A DNA stretch of 64,000 bases. It comes from Acidimicrobiia bacterium (GTDB lineage Bacteria > Actinomycetota > Acidimicrobiia > IMCC26256 > JAMXLJ01). Positions 16,745-61,466 of the stretch are shown here, piece by piece. The DNA is taken from assembly GCA_036558745.1 (NCBI GenBank), contig DATBEZ010000006.1:5526-69525 (forward strand). Reading direction: 5' to 3'. Positions within the stretch are counted from its first letter, which is position 1, and every line of letters begins with the position of its first letter. The notes beneath the pieces were generated by a model that worked only from the letters and a program-made list of their open reading frames with translations, made no database searches and was not told the DNA's origin. Both the position numbers and the translations under genes were made by a program.

Positions 16745-17612
16745 GCCGCTCGCGCACGAGCGCGTCGGCGCGGGCGGTGTCCTCCTGCAGGAAGAAGTGG
16801 CCACCGTCGAGCTGCACGAACGGGGAGCCGGCGCGCTCGGCCTGAGCCGCGAACCACTCCGCCGGCAGGTTCGAGCGGGTCCCCGCGGCCACGGTCGCGG
16901 TCGCGCGCAGCGACGCGAGGTGCCCCCACGCCTCACGTGCGCCGCGCTCGTCGCCCGACACCTCGAACACCGTCGCCTCGGCCTCGGGCCGGCACGCGAG
17001 CTCGACCTGACCGTCGGAGCGCTCGACCGTCCCCCACAGCACGTACGCGTCGAGCGACTCGCGTGCGAGCTCGTTCAACGGGGGACGGCTGCCGTACGAC
17101 GCGATCATCGTCGCCCGGTCGGGCCAGACCGCGCGACGCTTGCGCGCGATCGTCGCCATGTAGTTGCTGTTCTCGCCGGGCACTGCGGCGGCGCCGGGAA
17201 CGATGTCGCCGATCGAGAATGCGATCGCCTCGCACAGCAGCACGCGCCGTATCGTGCCGGGACGGACGCGGTCGATCACGACCGCGACGCCGCCTCCGAG
17301 CGACTCGCCGAGCGCCACGCACTCGCTCACGTCGAGCGCGTCCAGCACCGCGAGCACGTCGCGGGCCATGTGCTCGTACGCGTACCCGTCCACCGTCGCG
17401 GGCTCGTCGGTGCCGCCGTGGCCACGCAGGTCGACGCCGATGGGCCGGAACGCGTCGCGCAGACGCCGTGCGAGCGGGTCGAACAGCCCCGCGCAAAAGC
17501 CGTTGGGGTGCAGCAGCAACAAAGGCGGACCGTCGCCACCCCAGTCAAGCGCGGCGATGCGTAGGCCGTCGTTGCCGACGACGACCGGTCGAGGTTCCGG
17601 GTCGGCCGGCAA
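16734..17612 (-). CDS. alpha/beta hydrolase
   Basis: PPLLLLHPNGF plus the nucleophile elbow GESLGG. TTG start. Its 3' end overlaps the convergent ligase gene by 11 nt. Confidence 0.75.
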   Translation of the reverse strand: MPADPEPRPVVVGNDGLRIAALDWGGDGPPLLLLHPNGFCAGLFDPLARRLRDAFRPIGVDLRGHGGTDEPATVDGYAYEHMARDVLAVLDALDVSECVALGESLGGGVAVVIDRVRPGTIRRVLLCEAIAFSIGDIVPGAAAVPGENSNYMATIARKRRAVWPDRATMIASYGSRPPLNELARESLDAYVLWGTVERSDGQVELACRPEAEATVFEVSGDERGAREAWGHLASLRATATVAAGTRSNLPAEWFAAQAERAGSPFVQLDGGHFFLQEDTARADALVRERLSG

Positions 17613-18755: not shown

Positions 18756-19931
18756 CTACCGCGCGGCCATCGGCATGCCGAGGCCGAACACCGAGATGAG
18801 GTCGCGCTGGACCTCGTTCACACCGCCGCCGAACGTCAGGATGATCAGGCTCCGGTAGTTGCGTTCCAGGCGGCTCTTCAACGTCGAGCCCGTCGCGCCC
18901 TCCGTGAGGTACGAGCGCGGCCCGATGATCTCCATGAGGAGCCGGAACGCCTCCAGGTAGAACTCGGTACCGAACACCTTGATCGACGAGGCGGCCGCGA
19001 CGTCGAGCTCACCGCGCGTCGCCTGCCACGCGACCTGCCAGTTGGCCAGGCGCAGGAACTCGAGCTTCGCGTGCACACGTGCGAGGTGGATCTGCACCCA
19101 CTCCTGGTCGATGACACGCCGTCCGTCGGCCAGCTTCGTGTTCTGCGCCCACTCGCGCACGTCGTCGAGGGAGCGCTCGATGATCCCCGACGAGCACAGG
19201 GTCACCCGCTCGCGGTTGAGCTGGCTCGTGATGAGGCCCCACCCGTTGTTCTCGCCGCCGACCAGCGCGGTCGCCGGTACGCGCACGTCCTCGTAGAACA
19301 CCTGGTTGATGTCGTGGTCGCCGAGCAGCTTCATCGGCGTGATCTTGATGCCGGGCGTGTCCATCGGGACGACGAACAGCGAGATGCCCTTGTGCTTCTT
19401 CACCTCGGGGTTGGTACGCACCGCGAGCCACACGTAGTCGGCGTCGCTCGCGAGGCTGGTGAAGATCTTCTGCCCGTTGATGATGTACTCGTCGCCGTCG
19501 CGCACGGCCTTGGTCTTGAGCGCAGCCAGGTCGGTGCCCGCGCCGGGCTCGGTGTAGCCGATGCAGAAGTGGATCTCGCCCTTCACGATCTTGGGCAGGA
19601 AGAAGTCCTTCTGCTCATCGGTGCCGAAGTGCATGAGCGTGGGCCCGACGGTGTTGATCGTGAGCATCGGGACGGGCGCGCCCGCGCGCATCGACTCGTC
19701 GAAGAACACGAACTGCTCGATCGCCGAGAAGCCGCGCCCGCCGTACTCCTTGGGCCAGCCGACACCGAGCCAGCCGTCCTCGCCCATCTGGCGGACGACC
19801 TTGCGCATCTCGGGCCCGACGCCGCCCGCGTGCGAGAGCTTCTCCTGCACCTCGGGCGTGAGGAGGTTCTGGTAGTAGGCGCGCAGCTCGTCACGCAGCG
19901 CCCGCTGGTCGTCGGTGTAGCCGATCTGCAT
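18756..19931 (-). CDS. acyl-CoA dehydrogenase (first gene of the pair)
   Basis: 391 aa with GWLGVGWPKEYGGRGFSAIEQFVFFDE and CIGYTEPGAGTDLAALKTKAVRDGDEYIINGQKIFTS. The C-terminus is FGGGVNEVQRDLI. Confidence 0.9.
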   Translation of the reverse strand: MQIGYTDDQRALRDELRAYYQNLLTPEVQEKLSHAGGVGPEMRKVVRQMGEDGWLGVGWPKEYGGRGFSAIEQFVFFDESMRAGAPVPMLTINTVGPTLMHFGTDEQKDFFLPKIVKGEIHFCIGYTEPGAGTDLAALKTKAVRDGDEYIINGQKIFTSLASDADYVWLAVRTNPEVKKHKGISLFVVPMDTPGIKITPMKLLGDHDINQVFYEDVRVPATALVGGENNGWGLITSQLNRERVTLCSSGIIERSLDDVREWAQNTKLADGRRVIDQEWVQIHLARVHAKLEFLRLANWQVAWQATRGELDVAAASSIKVFGTEFYLEAFRLLMEIIGPRSYLTEGATGSTLKSRLERNYRSLIILTFGGGVNEVQRDLISVFGLGMPMAAR

Positions 19932-28235: not shown

Positions 28236-29078
28236 TCAGGGCAGGAGGCCGCGGAGCGCGTCCGCGCCGTAGACCGGTTCCGCGAACGGGGTGTAGTCGG
28301 GTCCGCGACGCAGCGCGTGACCGCCGTCCACTCCGAGGAGCTGACCCGTCACCCACGACGATTCCGGGCCCGCGAGGTAGCGGACCGCGTTGGCAATGTC
28401 GTCGGGGGTGCCGACGCGTCGGAGCGGCATCTGGTCGAGGTAGTCGTCGAGCACCGGCCCGCCCATCGTGATGCCGGCGACCATCTCGGTGTCGACGAGC
28501 CCGGGGAGGACCGCGTTCACACGCACACGCGACGCGCCGAGCTCGTCGGCAGCGACACGCACGAGCATGTCGATGCCGGCCTTGCCCACGCAGTACGCGC
28601 CCAGGTAGCGGTGCGTGACCGGCCCGGCGATGGAGGAGATCGCGACGAAGGACCCTCCCCCGCCTCGCGCCATCACCGGCGCGGTGTGCTTGAGGGTCAG
28701 GAACGTCCCGGTGACGTTGACATCGACGGTCGCGCGGAACGCCTCGACGTCTGCAAGGACGAGCGGCCCCATGTGCTGGGACCCTCCGGCGCACGCGACG
28801 ACGACGTTGAGCCCGCCCGTGATCGCGGTCGAGCGCTCAGCCGCCGCGCGCACCTGCTCCTCGTCGGTGACGTCGGCCCCGACGCGCTGCACGACCGCGC
28901 CCGAGGCGGCGACCTCTTCGATTGCTGCGGCACCGGCGCTCAGACGGTCCTCGCTGCGTCCGCAGATCGTGACCGACGCGCCGTCGGCCGCGAGGCGCTT
29001 CGCCGCCGCGAGCCCGATACCGCTGCCGCCTCCCGTGACCAGCGCCGCGTACCCCGCCAGGCTTCCCATCATGCGCAC
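28236..29078 (-). CDS. SDR family oxidoreductase
   Basis: AALVTGGGSGIGLAAA, YCVGKAG (YxxxK), PGLVDT. Confidence 0.9.
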   Translation of the reverse strand: MRMMGSLAGYAALVTGGGSGIGLAAAKRLAADGASVTICGRSEDRLSAGAAAIEEVAASGAVVQRVGADVTDEEQVRAAAERSTAITGGLNVVVACAGGSQHMGPLVLADVEAFRATVDVNVTGTFLTLKHTAPVMARGGGGSFVAISSIAGPVTHRYLGAYCVGKAGIDMLVRVAADELGASRVRVNAVLPGLVDTEMVAGITMGGPVLDDYLDQMPLRRVGTPDDIANAVRYLAGPESSWVTGQLLGVDGGHALRRGPDYTPFAEPVYGADALRGLLP

Positions 29079-29143
29079 CTCGACCTCGAAATCCCAGCAC
29101 CGAAGTGTGGTTGAATGCGCGCCCGGTCAACGCTGCGGTGACC

Positions 29144-29246
29144 GCAGCGAGGGACGAGCGGAGGTCGCTCGCCGGCGAACGAACGACGCGGGCGGCGGTA
29201 GCCGAACCCCGGGGCCGTGCAGCGAGAGAGTGAGCGAGAAGACATG
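29144..29246 (+). repeat. copy 1 of a ~100-nt start-codon-abutting structured repeat
   Basis: GCAGCGAGGGACGAGCGGAGGTCGCTCGCCGGCGAACGAACGACGCGGGCGGCGGTAGCCGAACCCCGGGGCCGTGCAGCGAGAGAGTGAGCGAGAAGACATG aligns with 57408.., 33690..(rc) and 36814... Confidence 0.85.
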
Positions 29247-31382: not shown

Positions 31383-32561
31383 TCAGCGCGGTGCGCGGGG
31401 CAGGCCGAGGCCGGCCATGCCGATGATCTCTCGCTGCACCTCGTTCACGCCGCCGCCGAAGGTCCCGACCGGCGCATGCCGGTACGCGGCCTCGAGCTCG
31501 CCTCGCAGCACGGCACCCGGTGTGTCGCGCTTGAGGTAACCGGCGCTGCCGAGCACCTCGAGCAGCAAGCGGCACGCCTCCACCCGCAGCTCGGTCCCGA
31601 ACACCTTCATCGCGGACGCATCGGCCGGATTGAGCGCGCCCGTCGCGAGGCTGGTCGCGACGCGCCAGTTCGCGAGCTTCAGCACCTCGACCTTCGCGTG
31701 CACGCGAGCCAGCGTGAGCCGAACCCATTCCTGGTCGATGACGCGCGTTCCGTCGACCAGACGGGTGTCCTGGGCCCACCGGCGGACCTCCTGCAGATGA
31801 CGGTCGGTCTGGCCCGCTGGTGCGAGCGCCACCCGCTCGTGATTGAGCTGGGTCGTGATCATCTTCCAGCCCTCGTTCTCGTTGCCGACGAGGTTCGACG
31901 CCGGCACACGCACGTCCTCGTAGTAGGTCGCGTTGGTGTGACCACCGCCGAGCAACCAGATGGGCGAGTGCTTGAAGCCAACCAGTGACGTCGGGACGAG
32001 CAGGATCGAGATGCCCTTGTGCTTCGGGGCGTCCGGGTCGGTGCGGCACGCGAGCCAGATCCAGTCCGCATCGTGCGCGCCGGTCGTGAACACCTTGTTG
32101 CCGTTCACCACGTACTCGTCGCCGTCGCGCACCGCACGTGTCCGCAGCGACGCGAGGTCGGTTCCCGCTCCGGGCTCGCTGTAGCCGATGGCGAAGTGCA
32201 GCTCACCGGCGAGGATACGAGGGAGGAAGTAGGCCCTCTGCTCGTCGTTGCCGAAGCGCATGAGCGTCGGGCCGACCGTGTTGAGCGTGACCAGCGGGAT
32301 CGGCGCACCGGCGCGCTGCGCCTCGTCGAAGAAGATGTACTGCTCGAGCGGGGAACGGCCTTGACCGCCGTACTCCGTCGGCCAGCCGACGCCGAGCCAG
32401 CCGTCGACACCCATCTGCCGCACGACGTCGCGGTACGCGGGTCCCGCGGCCTCGGCACCCGAACCGAGGCGGGCCCGCCGCTCTGGAGTCATGAGCCCTT
32501 CGAAGTATCCGCGCAGCTCCTGCTGCAGCGCGCGTTGCTCGGCCGACAGCTCCAGCTCCAT
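31383..32561 (-). CDS. acyl-CoA dehydrogenase (third gene of an ACAD triplet)
   Basis: 392 aa with GWLGVGWPTEYGGQGRSPLEQYIFFDE, AIGYSEPGAGTDLASLRTRAVRDGDEYVVNGNKVFTT and FGGGVNEVQREII. Confidence 0.9.
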   Translation of the reverse strand: MELELSAEQRALQQELRGYFEGLMTPERRARLGSGAEAAGPAYRDVVRQMGVDGWLGVGWPTEYGGQGRSPLEQYIFFDEAQRAGAPIPLVTLNTVGPTLMRFGNDEQRAYFLPRILAGELHFAIGYSEPGAGTDLASLRTRAVRDGDEYVVNGNKVFTTGAHDADWIWLACRTDPDAPKHKGISILLVPTSLVGFKHSPIWLLGGGHTNATYYEDVRVPASNLVGNENEGWKMITTQLNHERVALAPAGQTDRHLQEVRRWAQDTRLVDGTRVIDQEWVRLTLARVHAKVEVLKLANWRVATSLATGALNPADASAMKVFGTELRVEACRLLLEVLGSAGYLKRDTPGAVLRGELEAAYRHAPVGTFGGGVNEVQREIIGMAGLGLPRAPR

Positions 32562-32624: not shown

Positions 32625-33590
32625 CTACAACGCGGCCGCGAGCGCCTCGGAGTGCTCCTCGACCGAGCCCAACACGGTGTCGAGCCACCAGGCACGCTTC
32701 AGGTAGAGGTGCGCGTCGACCTCCCACGTGAAGCCCATGCCTCCGTGCACCTGGATCGCGGCCTTGCCGTTGCGCACCGCGGCGTCGCCCGCGGTCACCT
32801 TCGCCGCGTGGACCGCGCGCTCGGGATCGCCGACCGTCGGATCATCGAGGGTGACACCTGCGGCGTAGACGGCCGCGCGCGCGACCTCGGCCCGGACGAG
32901 CATGTCCGCACAGAGGTGCTTCACGGCCTGGAACGAGCCGATCGGCCGGTCGAACTGCTGACGTTCCTTCGCGTAGGCAACCGCGACGTCGGTCGTCGCC
33001 TCCGCGATCCCGAGCAGGAGCGCGGCCGCGAGCGCGGCGCCCTCCGTGCGCCAGCGCATCACGACGTCCACACCCGCGACCGCGTCACCGTCGGGCAGCG
33101 TGCCCTTGACGCGGTGGAGCGGTGTCAACGGATCGAGCGGCCGGTCGACGGGCGACGCCTCGACCGACGACGGGTCGACGGCGCGGATCCCGCGCTCGCC
33201 GACCACCAGGAGAACATCCAACGTGTCGCGGTTCTCGATCAGAAGCGGGGTCCGGCGCTCGTCGACCACGCCGGCCACCCGTGACCCGTCGGCGGCGCCG
33301 TCGACCAGACCGGCCGCCAGATGGGTCCCGATCAGCGGACCGGGCACGAGCGCGCGCCCGAGCTCCTCGAAGACCAGCACCGCCGCGGCCATCCCGAGCC
33401 CCACACCACCATCGGCTTCGGGAAGACGCAGCGCGAACACGCCGGCGTCGGCGAGGTCCCGCCAGCCGTCACGGTCGAGCCCACCGGTGGCTTCGGTCGC
33501 GCGCACGCGCTCCATGGGGAACCGGCCCGCGCACAGGCTCCGCACACCGTCCTGCAGCGCCACCTCGTCGTCGGAGAGCTCGAAATCCAT
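32625..33590 (-). CDS. acyl-CoA dehydrogenase-fold protein, short beta-subunit-like form
   Basis: MDFELSDDEVALQDGVRSL...ERQQFDRPIGSFQAVKHLCADM...HGGMGFTWEVDAHLYLKRA. About 320 aa, resembling the N-terminal half of the fusion at 59307... An alternative in-frame GTG start is at 33608. Confidence 0.8.
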   Translation of the reverse strand: MDFELSDDEVALQDGVRSLCAGRFPMERVRATEATGGLDRDGWRDLADAGVFALRLPEADGGVGLGMAAAVLVFEELGRALVPGPLIGTHLAAGLVDGAADGSRVAGVVDERRTPLLIENRDTLDVLLVVGERGIRAVDPSSVEASPVDRPLDPLTPLHRVKGTLPDGDAVAGVDVVMRWRTEGAALAAALLLGIAEATTDVAVAYAKERQQFDRPIGSFQAVKHLCADMLVRAEVARAAVYAAGVTLDDPTVGDPERAVHAAKVTAGDAAVRNGKAAIQVHGGMGFTWEVDAHLYLKRAWWLDTVLGSVEEHSEALAAAL

Positions 33591-33690
33591 GTCTTTTCGC
33601 TCGCTCACTTCCTGCAGGGCTCCGGTGTTCGCCCTGCTTCACAGTGTCGTTCGCTCGCTTACGAGCGCCTCCGCTCGTCCCTCGCTCCGG
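33588..33690 (-). repeat. copy 3 of the start-codon-abutting repeat
   Basis: The reverse complement reads GGAGCGAGGGACGAGCGGAGGCGCTCGTAAGCGAGCGAACGACACTGTGAAGCAGGGCGAACACCGGAGCCCTGCAGGAAGTGAGCGAGCGAAAAGACATG. Confidence 0.85.
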
Positions 33691-33711
33691 CGCCGCACGT
33701 CGTATCGCTGA

Positions 33712-33770: not shown

Positions 33771-34940
33771 CTAGCGGTCCTTGGGGAGGCCGAGGACGCG
33801 CTCGCCGACGATGTTGCGCTGGATCTGCGACGTGCCTGCGGCGATCGTCAACGACAGCGCGTGGATCTGGCCGTAGACGAGCGCGCCGTTCGCGATCCCG
33901 TCGATGTCGGCGATCGACAGGCCCGCCCGCTCCAGCACCCGCATCGACAGCTCACCGAGACGTTGACGCACCTCCGAGTAGTGCAGCTTGAACACGGAGC
34001 CGCCGACCCCCGGCACGCCCGTGCGCGCGGCCTGCGACACGTTGCGCTTCGTCAGCGCCCACAACGCGTCGAGGTCGGCCGCGAGATGACCGAGCTCACG
34101 CCGGACGCCCACGTCGTCGCGGCCCGTCTCGGTCGCGAACTTCGCGAGAGCACGCAGCAGCTCCATCGACTGGAGCATCTCGCTGACAAACGCGGTGCCG
34201 CGCTCGAAGCTGAAGGTGACCATCGCGACGCGCCAGCCGTCGTTCTCGGCACCGACCCGGTTCGCAACGGGGATGCGCACGTCGTCGAGGAAGAGCTCCG
34301 CGAACTCGGTGCTCCCGTGGATCGTCCGCAACGGGCGCACCTCGATGCCCGGTGTGTCCATCGGCATGATGAGCCACGTGATCCCGCGGTGCTTCGGCGC
34401 GTCGGGATCGGTGCGCACGAGCAGCTCGCAGAAGTCGGCCACCTCGGCGTGCGACGTCCAGATCTTCTGGCCGCTGACGACGTAGTCGTCGCCGTCGCGC
34501 ACCGCACGCGTGCGCAGTGACGCGAGGTCGGAGCCCGCGCCGGGCTCGGAGAAGCCCTGGCACCACACCTCGTCACCCCGCAGGATCGCGGGCAGGTGCC
34601 GGGCGCGCTGCTCGTCGCTCGCCTCGGCGATCAGCGTCGGGCCCGCGTGCAGGAGCCCGACGAAGTTGGCCCCGACGTAGGGCGCGTGGAGGCGCTCGGT
34701 CTCCTCCAGGAAGATGAGATGCTGGGCGGGTGACGCGCCGCGGCCGCCGTACTCGACGGGCCAGTTGATCCCCGCGTAGCCGGCGTCGAACAGCATTCGC
34801 TGCCACGCGGTGTCGTAGCTCCGGCGCGCGGGCCAGTCGTTGCGGTCCGGCTCGGGCGGCAGCGTGGGCAGGACGTCGTCGAGCCAGGCCCTGAGCTCGG
34901 CGCGGAAGCGCTCCTCGTCCTCCGTGTAGCGCAGGTCCAC
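33771..34940 (-). CDS. acyl-CoA dehydrogenase (first gene of the triplet)
   Basis: 389 aa with YAGINWPVEYGGRGASPAQHLIFLEE, CQGFSEPGAGSDLASLRTRAVRDGDDYVVSGQKIWTS and AAGTSQIQRNIVGERVLGLP. Confidence 0.9.
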   Translation of the reverse strand: MDLRYTEDEERFRAELRAWLDDVLPTLPPEPDRNDWPARRSYDTAWQRMLFDAGYAGINWPVEYGGRGASPAQHLIFLEETERLHAPYVGANFVGLLHAGPTLIAEASDEQRARHLPAILRGDEVWCQGFSEPGAGSDLASLRTRAVRDGDDYVVSGQKIWTSHAEVADFCELLVRTDPDAPKHRGITWLIMPMDTPGIEVRPLRTIHGSTEFAELFLDDVRIPVANRVGAENDGWRVAMVTFSFERGTAFVSEMLQSMELLRALAKFATETGRDDVGVRRELGHLAADLDALWALTKRNVSQAARTGVPGVGGSVFKLHYSEVRQRLGELSMRVLERAGLSIADIDGIANGALVYGQIHALSLTIAAGTSQIQRNIVGERVLGLPKDR

Positions 34941-35045: not shown

Positions 35046-35061
35046 CTGACGTGCACGTCAG
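35046..35061. promoter_or_regulatory. perfect 16-bp palindrome CTGACGTGCACGTCAG
   Basis: 14-29 nt upstream of ATG 35075. The 18-mer CCTGACGTGCACGTCA recurs at 39545..39561. Confidence 0.55.
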
Positions 35062-36802: not shown

Positions 36803-36813
36803 TGAGCCGCACC

Positions 36814-36906
36814 GGAGCCTGCGGAGGTGCTTGCCAGCGAACGAGCGACACGGGCGACGGCAGGCCGACACCGGAGCCGTGCAGCGAGTGAGTGAGCGAA
36901 TCGACA
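36814..36906 (+). repeat. copy 4 (5'-truncated) of the start-codon-abutting repeat
   Basis: GGAGCCTGCGGAGGTGCTTGCCAGCGAACGAGCGACACGGGCGACGGCAGGCCGACACCGGAGCCGTGCAGCGAGTGAGTGAGCGAATCGACATC. Confidence 0.8.
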
Positions 36907-37994
36907 TCGCTGAGCTCGAGTCCCACGGGTTGTACGACCCGGCCGCGCCCGACGCCGATGAGCAACGCGCGCTCCTGCAGTACCTCGTGTCGGAAGGTGT
37001 CGCCCTCGACGACATGGTGGAGGCACACCGGATCGGACGGCTGCCGTTCGTCGCCGGTGACATCCACATCCGACCCGGCGTACCGGTGTACACCATCAAC
37101 GAGGTCGCGACGAAGACCGGGGTCGACGCGGGGCTCCTCATGCGCGTGTGGCGCGCGTCCGGGTTCGCGATCGCGCCGCCGGACAAGCCCATGTTCTCCG
37201 ACGCCGACGTACAGGCGCTCGCCATGTTCACGCTCGCGGTGCAGCGCTTCGGCGAGGAGCCGACGCTGCAGCTCGCCCGGGTCTTCGGCGCATCGCTCGC
37301 TCGCATGGCGGCAGCCGCGTTCCACACCGCGCTCGCGTACGCGCAGGACGCCTTCGCGCCGCGCGCCCCGAGCGTCCTGGCGGCGGCCCGCGCCTCGACC
37401 GAGATGGGTCTGATGGCGGAGATGTCGGGGACGGCACTCGACTCCTTGTTCCGGCATCACATCGCAGCCACGGCACAGTGGTTCGACCGCGTGCCGAGCC
37501 CGGACCCGGAGACCGCACCACTCGCAATCGGCTTCGCCGACCTCGTCGGCTTCACCTCCCTCTCCCAGCGCCGCGACGTCCACGAGCTGGCCCGCACGGT
37601 CGGAGAGTTCGACGCCCTGACGTCGGAGATCGCGAGCGACGGTGGCGGGCGGGTCGTGAAGCTCATCGGTGACGAAGTGATGTTCGCGACGGCGGATCCG
37701 CGCCAGGCCGTCGCAATCGCGTTGGAGCTCGCCGACGCGCTCGCGGACCACCCGATCCTCCCGACGATGCGCGCGGCGGTCGCGTGCGGCACGGTGCTCG
37801 TCCGTGACGGCGACTGCTTCGGCCCGGTGGTCAACCTCGCGGCCCGGCTCGTCCATCTGGCCGAGCCCGGTCACGTGGTCGTGCCGGTCGGGACGGTGGT
37901 CTCCGACGATGCGTTCCTCGTCGAACCGACGGGCACCTGCGACGTGCGCGGCTTCGACGAGCCGGTCGCCGTCGCGCGCGTCGACCGCGCCTGA
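36888..37994 (+). CDS. class III adenylate/guanylate cyclase with uncharacterised N-terminal domain
   Basis: Catalytic-domain motifs IGFADLVGFTSL, VKLIGDEVMF and GPVVNLAARL. The start is taken as GTG 36888 (VSERIDIAELESHGLYDP) inside ORF 36702..37994. GTG 36879 is also possible. Confidence 0.75.
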   Translation: MSERIDIAELESHGLYDPAAPDADEQRALLQYLVSEGVALDDMVEAHRIGRLPFVAGDIHIRPGVPVYTINEVATKTGVDAGLLMRVWRASGFAIAPPDKPMFSDADVQALAMFTLAVQRFGEEPTLQLARVFGASLARMAAAAFHTALAYAQDAFAPRAPSVLAAARASTEMGLMAEMSGTALDSLFRHHIAATAQWFDRVPSPDPETAPLAIGFADLVGFTSLSQRRDVHELARTVGEFDALTSEIASDGGGRVVKLIGDEVMFATADPRQAVAIALELADALADHPILPTMRAAVACGTVLVRDGDCFGPVVNLAARLVHLAEPGHVVVPVGTVVSDDAFLVEPTGTCDVRGFDEPVAVARVDRA

Positions 37995-55023: not shown

Positions 55024-55038
55024 CTGACGCGCCGTCAG
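55024..55038. promoter_or_regulatory. perfect palindrome CTGACGcgcCGTCAG
   Basis: In the 88-bp divergent region between ECH (start 54991) and esterase (start 55080). Confidence 0.5.
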
Positions 55039-57354: not shown

Positions 57355-57369
57355 CTGACGATCCGTCAG
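57355..57369. promoter_or_regulatory. perfect palindrome CTGACGatcCGTCAG
   Basis: 22-36 nt upstream of ATG 57333 of the amidohydrolase(-), and in the same intergenic region as repeat copy 2. Confidence 0.5.
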
Positions 57370-57407
57370 CAGCGATCGACCCAACGCGCTACCGTCCCGC
57401 GGCGCAC

Positions 57408-57509
57408 GGAGCGAGGGACGAGCGAGTGCGCTCGCCAGCGAGCGAACGACGCGGGCAGCCCAGGGCCAAGGCCGGTGCCCTGCCGCGAGGGAGTGAGCGA
57501 GAAGACATG
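57408..57509 (+). repeat. copy 2 of the start-codon-abutting repeat
   Basis: GGAGCGAGGGACGAGCGAGTGCGCTCGCCAGCGAGCGAACGACGCGGGCAGCCCAGGGCCAAGGCCGGTGCCCTGCCGCGAGGGAGTGAGCGAGAAGACATG. Confidence 0.85.
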
Positions 57510-59306: not shown

Positions 59307-61466
59307 TCAGCGGGAGCGGGGGAGGCCGAGGCCGCGCTCGGCGATGATCGAGCGCTGGATCTCGCTGCTGCCCGCGTAGATCGTGGTGACGATCGCGTGG
59401 CGGAACGCGTGCTCGATCCAGCCCCCCGCGGGCGCGCCGGGATCGCCGTGACCGAGCACGCCCGCGGCCCCGAGCAGGTCGAGCAGGTCGGAGCTCGCGG
59501 CGCGGAACGCCTCGGTCGCGAACAGCTTGGCCATCGAGCCCTCGACGATCGGCAAACGTTCCTGTGACGACACCCACACCATGCGGTACGCGAGGAGGCG
59601 TCCGACCTCGTTGTCGATCGCGACGCGCGCGAGCCGGGTCCGAACGTCGGAATCGTCGAGCCGACCCGCGGCGCGCGCCCACGCAACGGCGCGGTCGAGG
59701 AGCCGGATCGCCTCGCCGTTCGCGGTCGGGTTCCGTTCGAACGCGAGCGCGACCGTCATCACGTTCCAACCGCCGTTGACATCACCGACACGGGCCGAGT
59801 CCGGCACGCGCACGTCGCTGTAGAAGGTGATGTTCGTGCGTTCACCGCCCAGCGTGTGCACCGGTCGGACCTCGATGCCGGGGCTGTCCATCGGCGCCAG
59901 GAACATGGTGAGGCCGCGGTGCTTGGGCAGCGTCGGATCGGTGCGCGTGAGCAGGAACACGTAGTCCGACTCGTGTGCGAGCGTCGTGAACATCTTCTGG
60001 CCGTTGATGATCCAGTGGTCGCCGTCACGCTCCGCCCGCGTGGTCACCGACGCGACGTCGGAGCCCGCGTCGGGCTCGCTGTAGCCGAGGCACATGAGGA
60101 TCTCGCCCCGCAGCGCGCGAGGGATCACGTCCCGACGCTGCTCGTCGTTGCCCGCGAGCAGGAGCGTTCGCGCGACGAGCTCGGTCGTGCCCCAGCCGTC
60201 CATGGGTGCGCCGGCGCGCGCGACCTCTTCGTCGAACGCGACCATCTCGAACGGATCACGCTCCTGACCGCCGAGCTCGCGTGGCCACGACGCCGCCAGC
60301 CAACCCCGATCCGCGAGCGCTCGATGCAGTCCCCAGTCGTGGATGGTGCCGGTCTCCAGCACCCGCTCGAGAACCTCGGGCGTGACCGCGGCGTCGAAGA
60401 ACGCGCGCGCCTCGGCGCGGAACGCCTCCGGCTGGGCCCCGAGGGAGAAGTCGAGTGACTCCTCGGGGCCGCTCGGGGCGGGCGCCGGGCGCGGCGCGTC
60501 CTCGTACAAGCGGTCGCCGACCAGCGCGACCGTGTCGGCCGGATCGCCGGCGGCGAGGAAGTCGGCCTTGGCGCGTCGGTAGTAGAGCTGCACGTCGTAC
60601 TCGAGCATGAACCCGTAGCCACCGTGCACGCGCAGGCTCGCGGCCGTCGTGTCGCCCGCGACCTTTCCGGCGAACGCGAACGCCATCGCCGCGAGCACGG
60701 CGAACCGCTCGGGTCGCGCCGCGAGCGCCCACGCGGCCTCCAGTACGAGCAGGCGCGCGCCCGTGAGCGCGGTCGCGACGTCGGCGAGCCGTTGCTGCAC
60801 GGCCTGGAACGACCCGATGGGCGCGTCGAACTGACGACGGGACTTCGCGTACTCCACGCCGAGATCAAGGGCTCCCTGCCCGATCCCGACGAGCGTCGCC
60901 GCGGTCAGCACCCGCCACTCGTCGCACGCGTGCTCGAACGCAGCTCGCGCTCCTGCACCGCGCGCGAGCACGACCGCGTCACCGCTGACTGCTCGATCGG
61001 CCAGTGGCGTTCCGCCGAGGTTCGAACGGGACTGCGCGCGTGGATCTCCGTGAACGAGCACGAGCTCGTCGCCGACCAGTCCGACGAGGTCGCGCGCGAC
61101 CGCGCCACCGGGCACGAGCATCCACACACCGTCGACGGCGGGTCGCAGTGCCAGCGTCGAGGGCTGGTCTCCGCACGCGACGCCGAAGCGGTCGAGGAGC
61201 CTGGTCGCGACGAGCGACTCGACGACGGGCGCGGGCGCGACGTGTGACCCGGCCTGCTCGCACACGACCGCGAGATCGACCAGCGAACCGCCGCCTTCTG
61301 CCGTGCCCATCGCCGGCACACCAACTCTGACCAGATGACGCCACAACGCAGCATCGAACCCGAGCGGTTCGGCAGCACGGACCCGCTCCGGTGAGGACTC
61401 CTTCGACAGCAGGGTCGCGAACGCGGCTCGCAGCGCGAGCTGGTCGTCGGAGAGGTCGAGGTTCAC
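59307..61466 (-). CDS. fused double acyl-CoA dehydrogenase (beta-like N-half + alpha-like C-half)
   Basis: GTG 61466 lies within ORF 59307..61658. The N-half (VNLDLSDDQLAL...RRQFDAPIGSFQAVQQRLAD...HGGYGFMLEYDVQLYYRRA) resembles 32625..33590. The C-half has CLGYSEPDAGSDVASVTTRAERDGDHWIINGQKMFTT...YAGSSEIQRSIIAERGLGLP. Confidence 0.85.
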   Translation of the reverse strand: MNLDLSDDQLALRAAFATLLSKESSPERVRAAEPLGFDAALWRHLVRVGVPAMGTAEGGGSLVDLAVVCEQAGSHVAPAPVVESLVATRLLDRFGVACGDQPSTLALRPAVDGVWMLVPGGAVARDLVGLVGDELVLVHGDPRAQSRSNLGGTPLADRAVSGDAVVLARGAGARAAFEHACDEWRVLTAATLVGIGQGALDLGVEYAKSRRQFDAPIGSFQAVQQRLADVATALTGARLLVLEAAWALAARPERFAVLAAMAFAFAGKVAGDTTAASLRVHGGYGFMLEYDVQLYYRRAKADFLAAGDPADTVALVGDRLYEDAPRPAPAPSGPEESLDFSLGAQPEAFRAEARAFFDAAVTPEVLERVLETGTIHDWGLHRALADRGWLAASWPRELGGQERDPFEMVAFDEEVARAGAPMDGWGTTELVARTLLLAGNDEQRRDVIPRALRGEILMCLGYSEPDAGSDVASVTTRAERDGDHWIINGQKMFTTLAHESDYVFLLTRTDPTLPKHRGLTMFLAPMDSPGIEVRPVHTLGGERTNITFYSDVRVPDSARVGDVNGGWNVMTVALAFERNPTANGEAIRLLDRAVAWARAAGRLDDSDVRTRLARVAIDNEVGRLLAYRMVWVSSQERLPIVEGSMAKLFATEAFRAASSDLLDLLGAAGVLGHGDPGAPAGGWIEHAFRHAIVTTIYAGSSEIQRSIIAERGLGLPRSR

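Follow-up and report, generated by a model that had tools for sequence, protein, structure and literature searches.

Four copies of an intergenic repeat in the window

The window analyzed here, 64 kb of the Acidimicrobiia contig DATBEZ010000006.1, is a catabolic island of the lipid or steroid type in which heteromeric acyl-CoA dehydrogenase (ACAD) pairs occur, and it carries four copies, called c1–c4, of an intergenic repeat about 110–115 nt long. All four sit in the lipid-catabolism-like gene cluster. They belong to a lineage-restricted, multi-copy family of dispersed intergenic repeats of Acidimicrobiia, apparently undescribed, which is docked with nucleotide precision on start codons and reads in the same direction as the genes concerned, themselves unrelated to one another. 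A literature search with element strings and with strings of a GGGTATCCC-tipped hairpin present in part of the family returned nothing relevant.

An earlier note on this DNA had reported four structured repeats of about 100 nt, and the copies are indeed where it placed them: (i) aligned with MAFFT, c1–c4 display a mean column identity of 76% over ~115 nt; (ii) the tail 19-mer GAGTGAGCGAGAAGACATG occurs three times in the window at ≤3 mismatches, for 0.03 occurrences expected; (iii) a family hidden Markov model (HMM), built from 15 members, returned c1–c4 as the sole window matches at E≤10; (iv) a covariance model (CM), run with all filters off, gave exactly four window matches, scoring 77–115 bits, the next best score being 13.4 bits. 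On the 5' side the element begins ~10–12 nt upstream of the extents first given, where GCGGYGNCC precedes GGAGCGA. The copies and their parts are as follows.

29132..29246, plus strand: c1, full element (CM score 114.8 bits), ending on ATG 29244-29246 of an LLM/F420-type oxidoreductase gene, in a divergent intergenic region where an SDR gene on the minus strand begins at 29072
29135..29172, plus strand: helix P1 of c1; GCGGTGACC (29135-29143) pairs with GGTCGC-T-CGC (29163-29172), the T being bulged, and the loop is the purine-rich GCAGCGAGGGACGAGCGGA
29226..29246, plus strand: 3' tail of c1, GAGAGTGAGCGAGAAGAC followed by ATG, with a TGA at 29231-29233 and a mini-open reading frame (ORF) from GTG 29230 to TGA 29247
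33588..33699, minus strand: c3 (95.7 bits), ending on ATG 33590-33588, between co-directional acyl-CoA dehydrogenase genes (389 aa and 321 aa); P1 is 33696-33689 with 33669-33662 and P2 is GCAGGGC (33637-33631) with GCCCTGC (33620-33614)
36803..36908, plus strand: c4, with a degenerate 5' end (77.5 bits), following an amidohydrolase gene, whose stop is TAA 36800-36802, and preceding the gene for adenylate cyclase; ATG 36802 (TAATG overlap) opens a 29-codon ORF across the element, which terminates at TGA 36889-36891, overlapping GTG 36888, the in-frame start of the cyclase
36810..36868, plus strand: 59-nt segment of c4, flanked by the 10-nt direct repeat CACCGGAGCC (36810-36819 and 36869-36878)
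57396..57509, plus strand: c2 (111.5 bits), a full element whose 3' end is the ATG at 57507 of an SDR gene; its intergenic region is divergent, and the element begins 1–4 nt past a conserved TANNNT hexamer (TACCGT, 57390-57395), and its P1 is 57399-57407 with 57426-57435

The suggestion that every copy ends exactly on a start codon holds for c1, c2 and c3, whose terminal ATG codons open ORFs of 343, 251 and 321 aa, respectively, with native-looking N-termini (the c1 gene product gives a Pfam Bac_luciferase match). c4 ends on ATC, and the cyclase must start at GTG 36888 or 36879, within the element. The in-frame readings of the last codons proposed for the four copies (SEREDM, SEREDM, SERKDM and SERIDI) are correct, and the four downstream genes (LLM, SDR, ACAD and cyclase) are unrelated, as was claimed and as is seen with diverse products family-wide. 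Two of the few single-nucleotide polymorphisms between co-occurring strains (window versus L001–L004, L-numbers designating related contigs or metagenome-assembled genome (MAG) loci) fall inside c1, at 29174 and 29199; at 29199 the T of the window makes a TAG in the frame of the gene, upstream of its ATG, and all other strains have a C.

The largest repeats of the window are of another kind, namely paralogous coding sequences from at least seven ACAD genes and several SDR and LLM genes (examples at 1-300, 19383-19682, 32010-32309, 34380-34679 and 59910-60209). The window also contains three intergenic sites (35046-35061, 55024-55038 and 57355-57369; 0.12 expected) for a palindrome, CTGACG-N3-4-CGTCAG. 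The site beside c2 is conserved next to the 95% identical ortholog in L143 and variant in L145, and a similar site follows the amidohydrolase gene of L135. This palindrome is probably the operator of a cluster regulator, unrelated to the repeat.

Distribution, layout and structure of the family

Identical or near-identical counterparts of the window contig are present in several JGI metagenome samples, and homologues of two window proteins are labelled as coming from Acidimicrobiia, Acidimicrobiales or Ilumatobacteraceae MAGs. Scanning the GTDB representatives, from which the source species is apparently missing, with a pattern of the 5' part gave 10 single matches, two of which are true relatives (L007, an Acidimicrobiia MAG, and L010). 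The pattern used for metagenomes combined the linker and the tail and ended 8 nt short of the start, leaving the start codon and the spacer unspecified. It was less specific than planned: the >120 matches were mostly GAGCGA microsatellite-like DNA, which the HMM filtered out, and ~20 more copies emerged once this noise was removed. Metagenome contigs and MAGs together supplied ~25 copies besides those of the window. The analysis covered 64 kb of the source and, for its relatives, pieces of 20 kb. Plasmid sequences contained no blastn match to the element, and viral contigs scanned with its most conserved 20-mer contained none.

Two sequences met during these scans are distinct from the family. 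A separate repeat of ~110 nt, CCTTTAGCGACGGGAACGGCGCGA...GCGAGCGAGCGACTAGCGAGCGAGCAAGCGAGCGTAACCGTCCGTCGGCCCGAGCGAGTGAGCGA, occurs two to three times per contig in GAGCGA microsatellite-like DNA (L032, L038, L045, L064, L079, L087, L113 and others, from Ga0209491, Ga0209390 and Ga0335398). In a Geodermatophilaceae MAG (L008, 2040-2160), a plausible start codon (MVDWDLAAATG...) is closely preceded by a purine-rich leader of the GAGCGAG type, which contains the exact 5' block AGCGAGGGACGAGCG but no other part of the element; judging from this leader, pre-start motifs of the GAGCGAG type may be more widespread in Actinomycetota.

Read from 5' to 3', the element comprises an optional ATG or GTG, the helix P1, which closes a conserved GGAGCGAsGrAsGAGCG loop, the linker CCAGCGARCGAACGAC, a variable hairpin region (P2), the tail GCAGCGAGGGAGTGAGCGAGAAGAC and the start codon of the downstream gene. 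There are two subfamilies, the window type and a type B, in which the central hairpin is perfect over 9–12 bp and often tipped by GGGTATCCC. Purines make up 63% of the sense strand and T makes up 7%, with more G than C, and each element contains three to five similar purine-rich blocks of the GAGCGAG type. The two ends are direct repeats of each other (GCAGCGAGGGA and GCAGCGAGAGA); there are no terminal inverted repeats, and no pairing joins the ends. TRF found no tandem array at c1–c4, where the HMM and the CM likewise give single copies, and the only duplications are partial ones of modules (L114, L120 and L027). According to the CM, the window contains no inverted pairs of units. The element has neither a U-tract nor the GTAG-type signature of repetitive extragenic palindromic (REP) sequences, and promoter and terminator consensus scans around c1 and c2 gave nothing. 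An origin in situ by local slippage of GAGCGA repeats was rejected because the non-repetitive segments CCGGAGCC and GACGCGGGCG are common to different loci.

The family consensus computed by RNAalifold contains one helix, P1, in which 5' GCG-GYGNNC pairs with GNNCRC-T-CGC around a purine loop of ~20 nt. Over 22 copies, 91% of the cells are paired, and five of the nine pairs have changed on both sides (CG/UA/UG; CG/AU/GC; CG/AU); the covariation score of P1 was reached by none of 500 shuffles, and sliding the partner strand by 1–3 columns lowers the pairing to 25–61%. P1 is thus kept by compensatory changes. The third, long-range pairing suggested by RNAalifold, between GC..AC in the linker and GY..GC in the tail, was dropped because its R/Y covariation coincides with an indel separating short- and long-tail subfamilies and may be an alignment artefact.

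The earlier note had drawn two other hairpins and taken both to be preserved. They can be drawn in the sequences, but their preservation is another matter. Hairpin 1 (CGAGCG/CGCTCG), whose pairing is possible in 84% of the cells, shares its 3' strand with P1; it displays no double-sided change and is broken in 5–6 of the 22 copies, exactly where P1 covaries; its 3' arm covaries instead with a 5' strand lying outside the repeat as first delimited. For hairpin 2, which corresponds to P2, compensatory change had been proposed; the pairing is no better than in shuffles in c1, c2 and c4 (z = +0.15, +0.56 and −0.83, respectively), the exception in the window being c3 (z = −3.4). The type B hairpin does exceed shuffles (z = −2.5 to −5.6) and its outer stem covaries. 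Of these helices, P1 has the support of covariation and hairpin 1 has none; P2 is significant in c3 and subfamily B only. Folded singly, the four copies score no better than shuffles (z = −0.66, +0.49, −1.86 and +0.23). The earlier note could not place the element in a known RNA family, and it belongs to no Rfam family: there was no match in the window at the gathering score, none for six loci at E≤1 and, at E≤10, none for c2 and only noise for c1 (E 1.2–6.4, far under the gathering scores).

Start-codon docking, translation signals and turnover

In ~18 of the 27 non-redundant copies, and in all four window copies, a long ORF begins (at ATG, GTG or TTG) no more than 5 nt to either side of the canonical 3' end, the exceptions being L067/L114, L116, L122a, L007 and L010. 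Placement relative to genes is thus non-random in both position and orientation in this sample, whose copies outside the window were gathered with a tail-based pattern. Since the proteins encoded downstream match their Pfam profiles from positions 1–4 onwards, the N-termini encoded after the element are real. The products include enzymes (two ECH, three ACAD, SdhA/FrdA, two LLM, POR-gamma, UDG, an SDR and adenylate cyclase) as well as an ArsR-type helix-turn-helix regulator, a biotin carrier and ribosomal protein L11; a 911-aa product looks NuoG-like by its N-terminal Fe-S motifs. Some copies occupy divergent promoter regions (c1, c2 and L094), others are intercistronic (c3, c4, L075, L086, L110, L111, L120 and L122b). 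Orientation tracks the gene and not the strand, as illustrated by c3, on the minus strand between c1 and c4 on the plus strand. An orientation bias set by replication direction, of the IS200/IS605 kind, is unlikely for the same reason, c3 being inverted between c1 and c4 and following its own gene.

In the other genes of these genomes, Shine-Dalgarno (SD) cores resembling GGAGG lie 4–9 nt from the start. The element-linked starts have none at this distance, as exemplified by the c1 tail; the best candidate is a GGGAG lying 13 nt before the start. Directly ahead of CGGYG, 6 of 23 copies have an ATG and another 3 a GTG, for ~0.6 expected from composition. This ATG overlaps the upstream stop codon in L075 (TGATG), L110 (TGATG) and c4 (TAATG), and TGATG is also the junction at the empty ACAD site of L141. 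The ORFs opened by all six ATG codons cross the whole element; in L075, L135 and L140 the crossing ORF ends at the conserved TGA of the tail, 10–14 nt ahead of the start, and in L110 (TGATG), L122b (TGATG) and c4 (GTGA) it overlaps the downstream start. Stops are rare within elements, apart from the conserved TGA at −13/−17. The scarcity of stops, together with the missing SD, suggests a termination-reinitiation hand-over in the intercistronic copies. The five-codon ORF noticed earlier in c1 (GTG to ACA TGA) is present, but its ATGA overlap with the gene start occurs only in c1 and L075, which is at chance level across the family; L090 has the ATGA without a GTG to start the mini-ORF. We rejected this mini-ORF as a family feature because the overlap depends only on the first base of codon 2 being A.

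Orthologous sites reveal that the element has been gained, lost and remodelled over short evolutionary times. The 99.9% identical strain L001 lacks the 59 nt of c4 between the CACCGGAGCC repeats, a loss that puts ATG 36802 directly in frame with the cyclase and turns the relay arrangement into a direct start; its cyclase is called from this ATG, at the amidohydrolase stop, as a 377-aa protein, whereas the same ATG is out of frame in the window. In L140 (LLM 94% identical) the c1 site holds a copy whose P2 region has been replaced. L143 (SDR 95% identical) has no element at the c2 site, where the upstream palindrome, the TANNNT hexamer and the coding sequence are conserved. The c3 site is filled in L135 (86% LLM identity) by a copy that has a type-B P2 and is ~55 nt longer (168 vs 112 nt), and empty in L138 (81%; 7-nt spacer) and L141 (73%; TGATG overlap). 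Altogether, L143, L138, L141, L142 and L137 lack the element at orthologous sites. In L114, compared with L067, the linker and tail modules are duplicated. Being dispensable, indel-prone and fast-evolving, the element behaves like a dispersed repeat, not like a conserved regulator.

The empty sites of L138 (TGAGCGAGCC-ATG) and L143 (GGGAGAGATGAGCGGGAAGG) both resemble the element tail, a likeness that may reflect homology-guided copying or merely a common purine-rich pre-start motif. In the empty allele, the TANNNT hexamer (TACCGT in the window, TACGGT in L143 and L145) lies 8 nt ahead of the native ATG, a position suggesting an ancestral SDR mRNA with no leader or only a very short one. In L135, the gap between the amidohydrolase and thiolase genes (17056-17207) contains a degenerate element-like sequence below HMM detection (GCGGC, purine loop and GCCGC, then GAGAGCGAAGAC, ~50 nt before an ATG), which may be a decayed copy at the position matching c4.

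Interpretation and comparison with known systems

On balance we favor, by no means firmly, the reading that the element is an indel-prone intergenic repeat, similar in habits to mycobacterial interspersed repetitive units (MIRUs), and that it shares a transcript with the downstream gene, whose translation-initiation region it supplies. The element would be part of the transcript as a 5' untranslated region or an intercistronic spacer, and would replace the native initiation region, so that its presence would cost little. In intercistronic copies, an ORF beginning at a 5' ATG that overlaps the upstream stop (TGATG or TAATG) would run through the stop-poor element and end 10–14 nt before the downstream start or overlapping it, and the ribosome would be handed on by termination-reinitiation. 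Such a relay is the logic proposed for MIRUs. As to how the element spreads, candidates are a trans-acting transposase recognizing the hairpins and homology-guided copying between sites resembling the purine-rich tail. A more daring version, to which we give tentative credence at most, holds that the family is a second, evolutionarily independent class of start-codon-homing elements: non-autonomous, integrating at or just after the start codon, often at TGATG junctions, and neutralizing themselves by means of a stop-free relay ORF and a new initiation site, with P1 and the GGGTATCCC-tipped sister hairpin serving as the recognition structure for a mobilizing enzyme or for homology-guided copying.

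Several points weigh against the MIRU-like reading. The relay ORF is not general, given that no start codon is available for it in c2, L056 and L062 and that a stop interrupts it in c3; moreover, c1 and c2 are promoter-proximal, with no upstream cistron, which leaves the SD-less translation of their genes unexplained. The two distant relatives found with the unbiased 5' pattern, L007 and L010, lie antisense between co-directional genes, and the copies outside the window were retrieved with a pattern requiring the tail, so that the positional statistics are not genome-wide. Likewise, the copies are phylogenetically related, and the shuffle-based covariation and frame statistics overstate their independence. 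The c2/L143 pair, the only filled and empty alleles whose flanks are close, does not amount to a simple insertion, since the filled allele lacks 12 native nt including ATG GCG GGA, and its 5' junction is ambiguous, MAFFT placing 14 of the first 20 element bases on native sequence. Finally, neither a transposase nor a donor copy nor a clean target-site duplication came to light in the 64 kb of the source and the 20-kb pieces of relatives.

The element could instead be a cis-regulatory leader RNA, that is, a riboswitch, a thermosensor or a platform for a global RNA-binding protein or small RNA, in which CGCTCGCC would alternatively pair with GAGCGAG blocks near the start. The covariation of P1, the sequence conservation of the loop and linker and the fixed position relative to the start codon all speak for such a leader, as does the capacity of the CGCTCG strand to pair either with the adjacent CGAGCG (84% of the cells) or, by inspection of the sequence, with GTGAGCG in the tail. 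We nevertheless hold it unlikely. The downstream genes share no pathway and include housekeeping genes, a diversity unfavorable to a riboswitch for one ligand; relatives 81–95% identical lack the element at their orthologous sites, and it is remodelled within one population; the alternative hairpin does not covary and folding energies are ordinary; Rfam has no match even at E≤10; and sequence identity extending through the spacer up to the ATG is atypical of riboswitch copies evolving independently. The switch envisaged in the earlier note, sequestering the start or ribosome-binding site, accordingly finds no support, nor does one responding to a ligand, the genes being functionally unrelated and the element missing at the orthologous sites of close relatives.

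We give a similarly low probability to the idea that the element is a hairpin of the REP, bacterial interspersed mosaic element (BIME) or terminator kind, acting at the 3' end of the upstream transcript (in mRNA stabilization, partial termination or differential expression within the operon), or a DNA hairpin serving as substrate of a RAYT/IS200-type enzyme, its adjacency to starts being incidental. The perfect 9–12-bp G+C hairpin of subfamily B, conserved at its GGGTATCCC apex and covarying in its outer stem (z = −2.5 to −5.6), would suit such a role, and so would the many intercistronic copies and the opposite orientation of L007 and L010. Yet the hairpin is eroded in the window subfamily, which retains the tail and the docking; c1 and c2 have no upstream co-directional gene; U-tract, GTAG-type signature and inverted pairs are all lacking; and a nucleotide-exact junction with the start codon in ~18 of 27 copies would not be expected of a 3'-end element. 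As for a DNA-level array of direct-repeat binding sites for a transcription factor of the catabolic regulon, the three to five similar purine-rich blocks per element and the location of all window copies in a lipid-catabolism-like cluster are in its favor, but we consider it very improbable: operators need neither ~110 nt at 75–85% identity including non-repeat parts nor covarying strands, intercistronic copies occur inside housekeeping operons, and a separate palindromic operator-like motif already adjoins c2.

MIRUs have been used for decades in M. tuberculosis typing. To our knowledge, the route by which they reach start codons, and their role there, are unsettled. An unrelated family with the same habit in another actinobacterial class offers an independent system in which to ask whether docking on starts reflects targeting or selection, with population-level indels, filled and empty orthologous sites and a helix with compensatory changes as its assets; it could also show whether relay ORFs truly preserve translational coupling. 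There is a practical side as well. The elements shift gene-start calls, as for the cyclase in L001 compared with the window, and the SD-less initiation regions that they provide are liable to be misread by annotation pipelines and ribosome-binding-site models in Acidimicrobiia MAGs. Public gene calls for M. tuberculosis RegX3 (P0121–P0124) are 245–277 aa long, for a 227-aa protein; these N-terminal extensions are likely due to callers reading through upstream MIRU ORFs, the same start-call ambiguity as that of the cyclase beside c4.

Among known systems, riboswitches and other leader RNAs share with the Acidimicrobiia element a length of ~100 nt before start codons, a covarying helix, a conserved loop or junction and several copies per genome; the element differs in having no Rfam match, unrelated genes, no conservation at orthologous loci and a spacer that is identical up to the ATG. 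Like REP sequences and BIMEs, it is dispersed, G+C-rich, hairpin-forming, lineage-specific and often intercistronic and presumably co-transcribed, and the subfamily B hairpin is REP-sized. However, its composite unit of ~112 nt combines purine-rich single strands with two helices that are separate from each other, whereas a REP is an imperfect palindrome of 20–40 nt; furthermore, it has a strict start-codon junction, no GTAG-type head and no inverted-pair organization. With miniature inverted-repeat transposable elements (MITEs) such as Neisseria Correia elements, ERIC/IRU and RUP, it has in common a non-autonomous nature, a length of ~100–150 nt, a location near genes, presumed co-transcription, presence/absence polymorphism and a presumed ability to change the expression of a neighboring gene; unlike them, it has neither terminal inverted repeats nor a clean target-site duplication, and is placed at start codons instead of at a short target motif. 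The element thus falls outside the definitions of REP/BIME and MITE, and is in all likelihood not a riboswitch.

The closest parallel is with MIRUs (Supply et al. 1997, as summarized in PMC12548453 and PMC3184786), which 'insert themselves at start codons' with a coupled ORF (PMC12548453) and whose size, copy number, tetranucleotide direct repeats and ORFs overlapping flanking genes are listed in an earlier review (PMC3184786). Each is a multi-copy, G+C-rich repeat of 40–115 nt that occupies intergenic regions in one actinobacterial lineage, lies at start codons in the orientation of the flanking genes and has internal inverted repeats. An ORF joining the preceding stop to the following start is possible in both, and both have orthologous sites with and without a copy. 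The differences are that the Acidimicrobiia element occurs as single copies and not as tandem arrays with variable repeat number; that the −4 (ATGA) overlap is not a feature of its family, the ORF stopping 10–14 nt early or being missing; and that it is also found in promoter-proximal 5' regions, has a clearly covarying P1 and is hosted outside Mycobacterium. A flanking ATG...ATG arrangement is seen in 6 of 23 copies, and the c2/L143 pair is no clean insertion with duplication. In the senX3-regX3 region of M. tuberculosis (L139), which contains three 77-nt MIRUs, each ATGA...CTGATGA, the family HMM (nhmmer --max) gave no match, and local alignment to these MIRUs was no better than to shuffles. 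The resemblance to MIRUs pointed out in the earlier note therefore applies to behavior, namely start docking, bridging ORFs in some copies and filled or empty sites, and extends neither to sequence homology nor to tandem arrays, which makes the Acidimicrobiia family an analogue of MIRUs, not a member.

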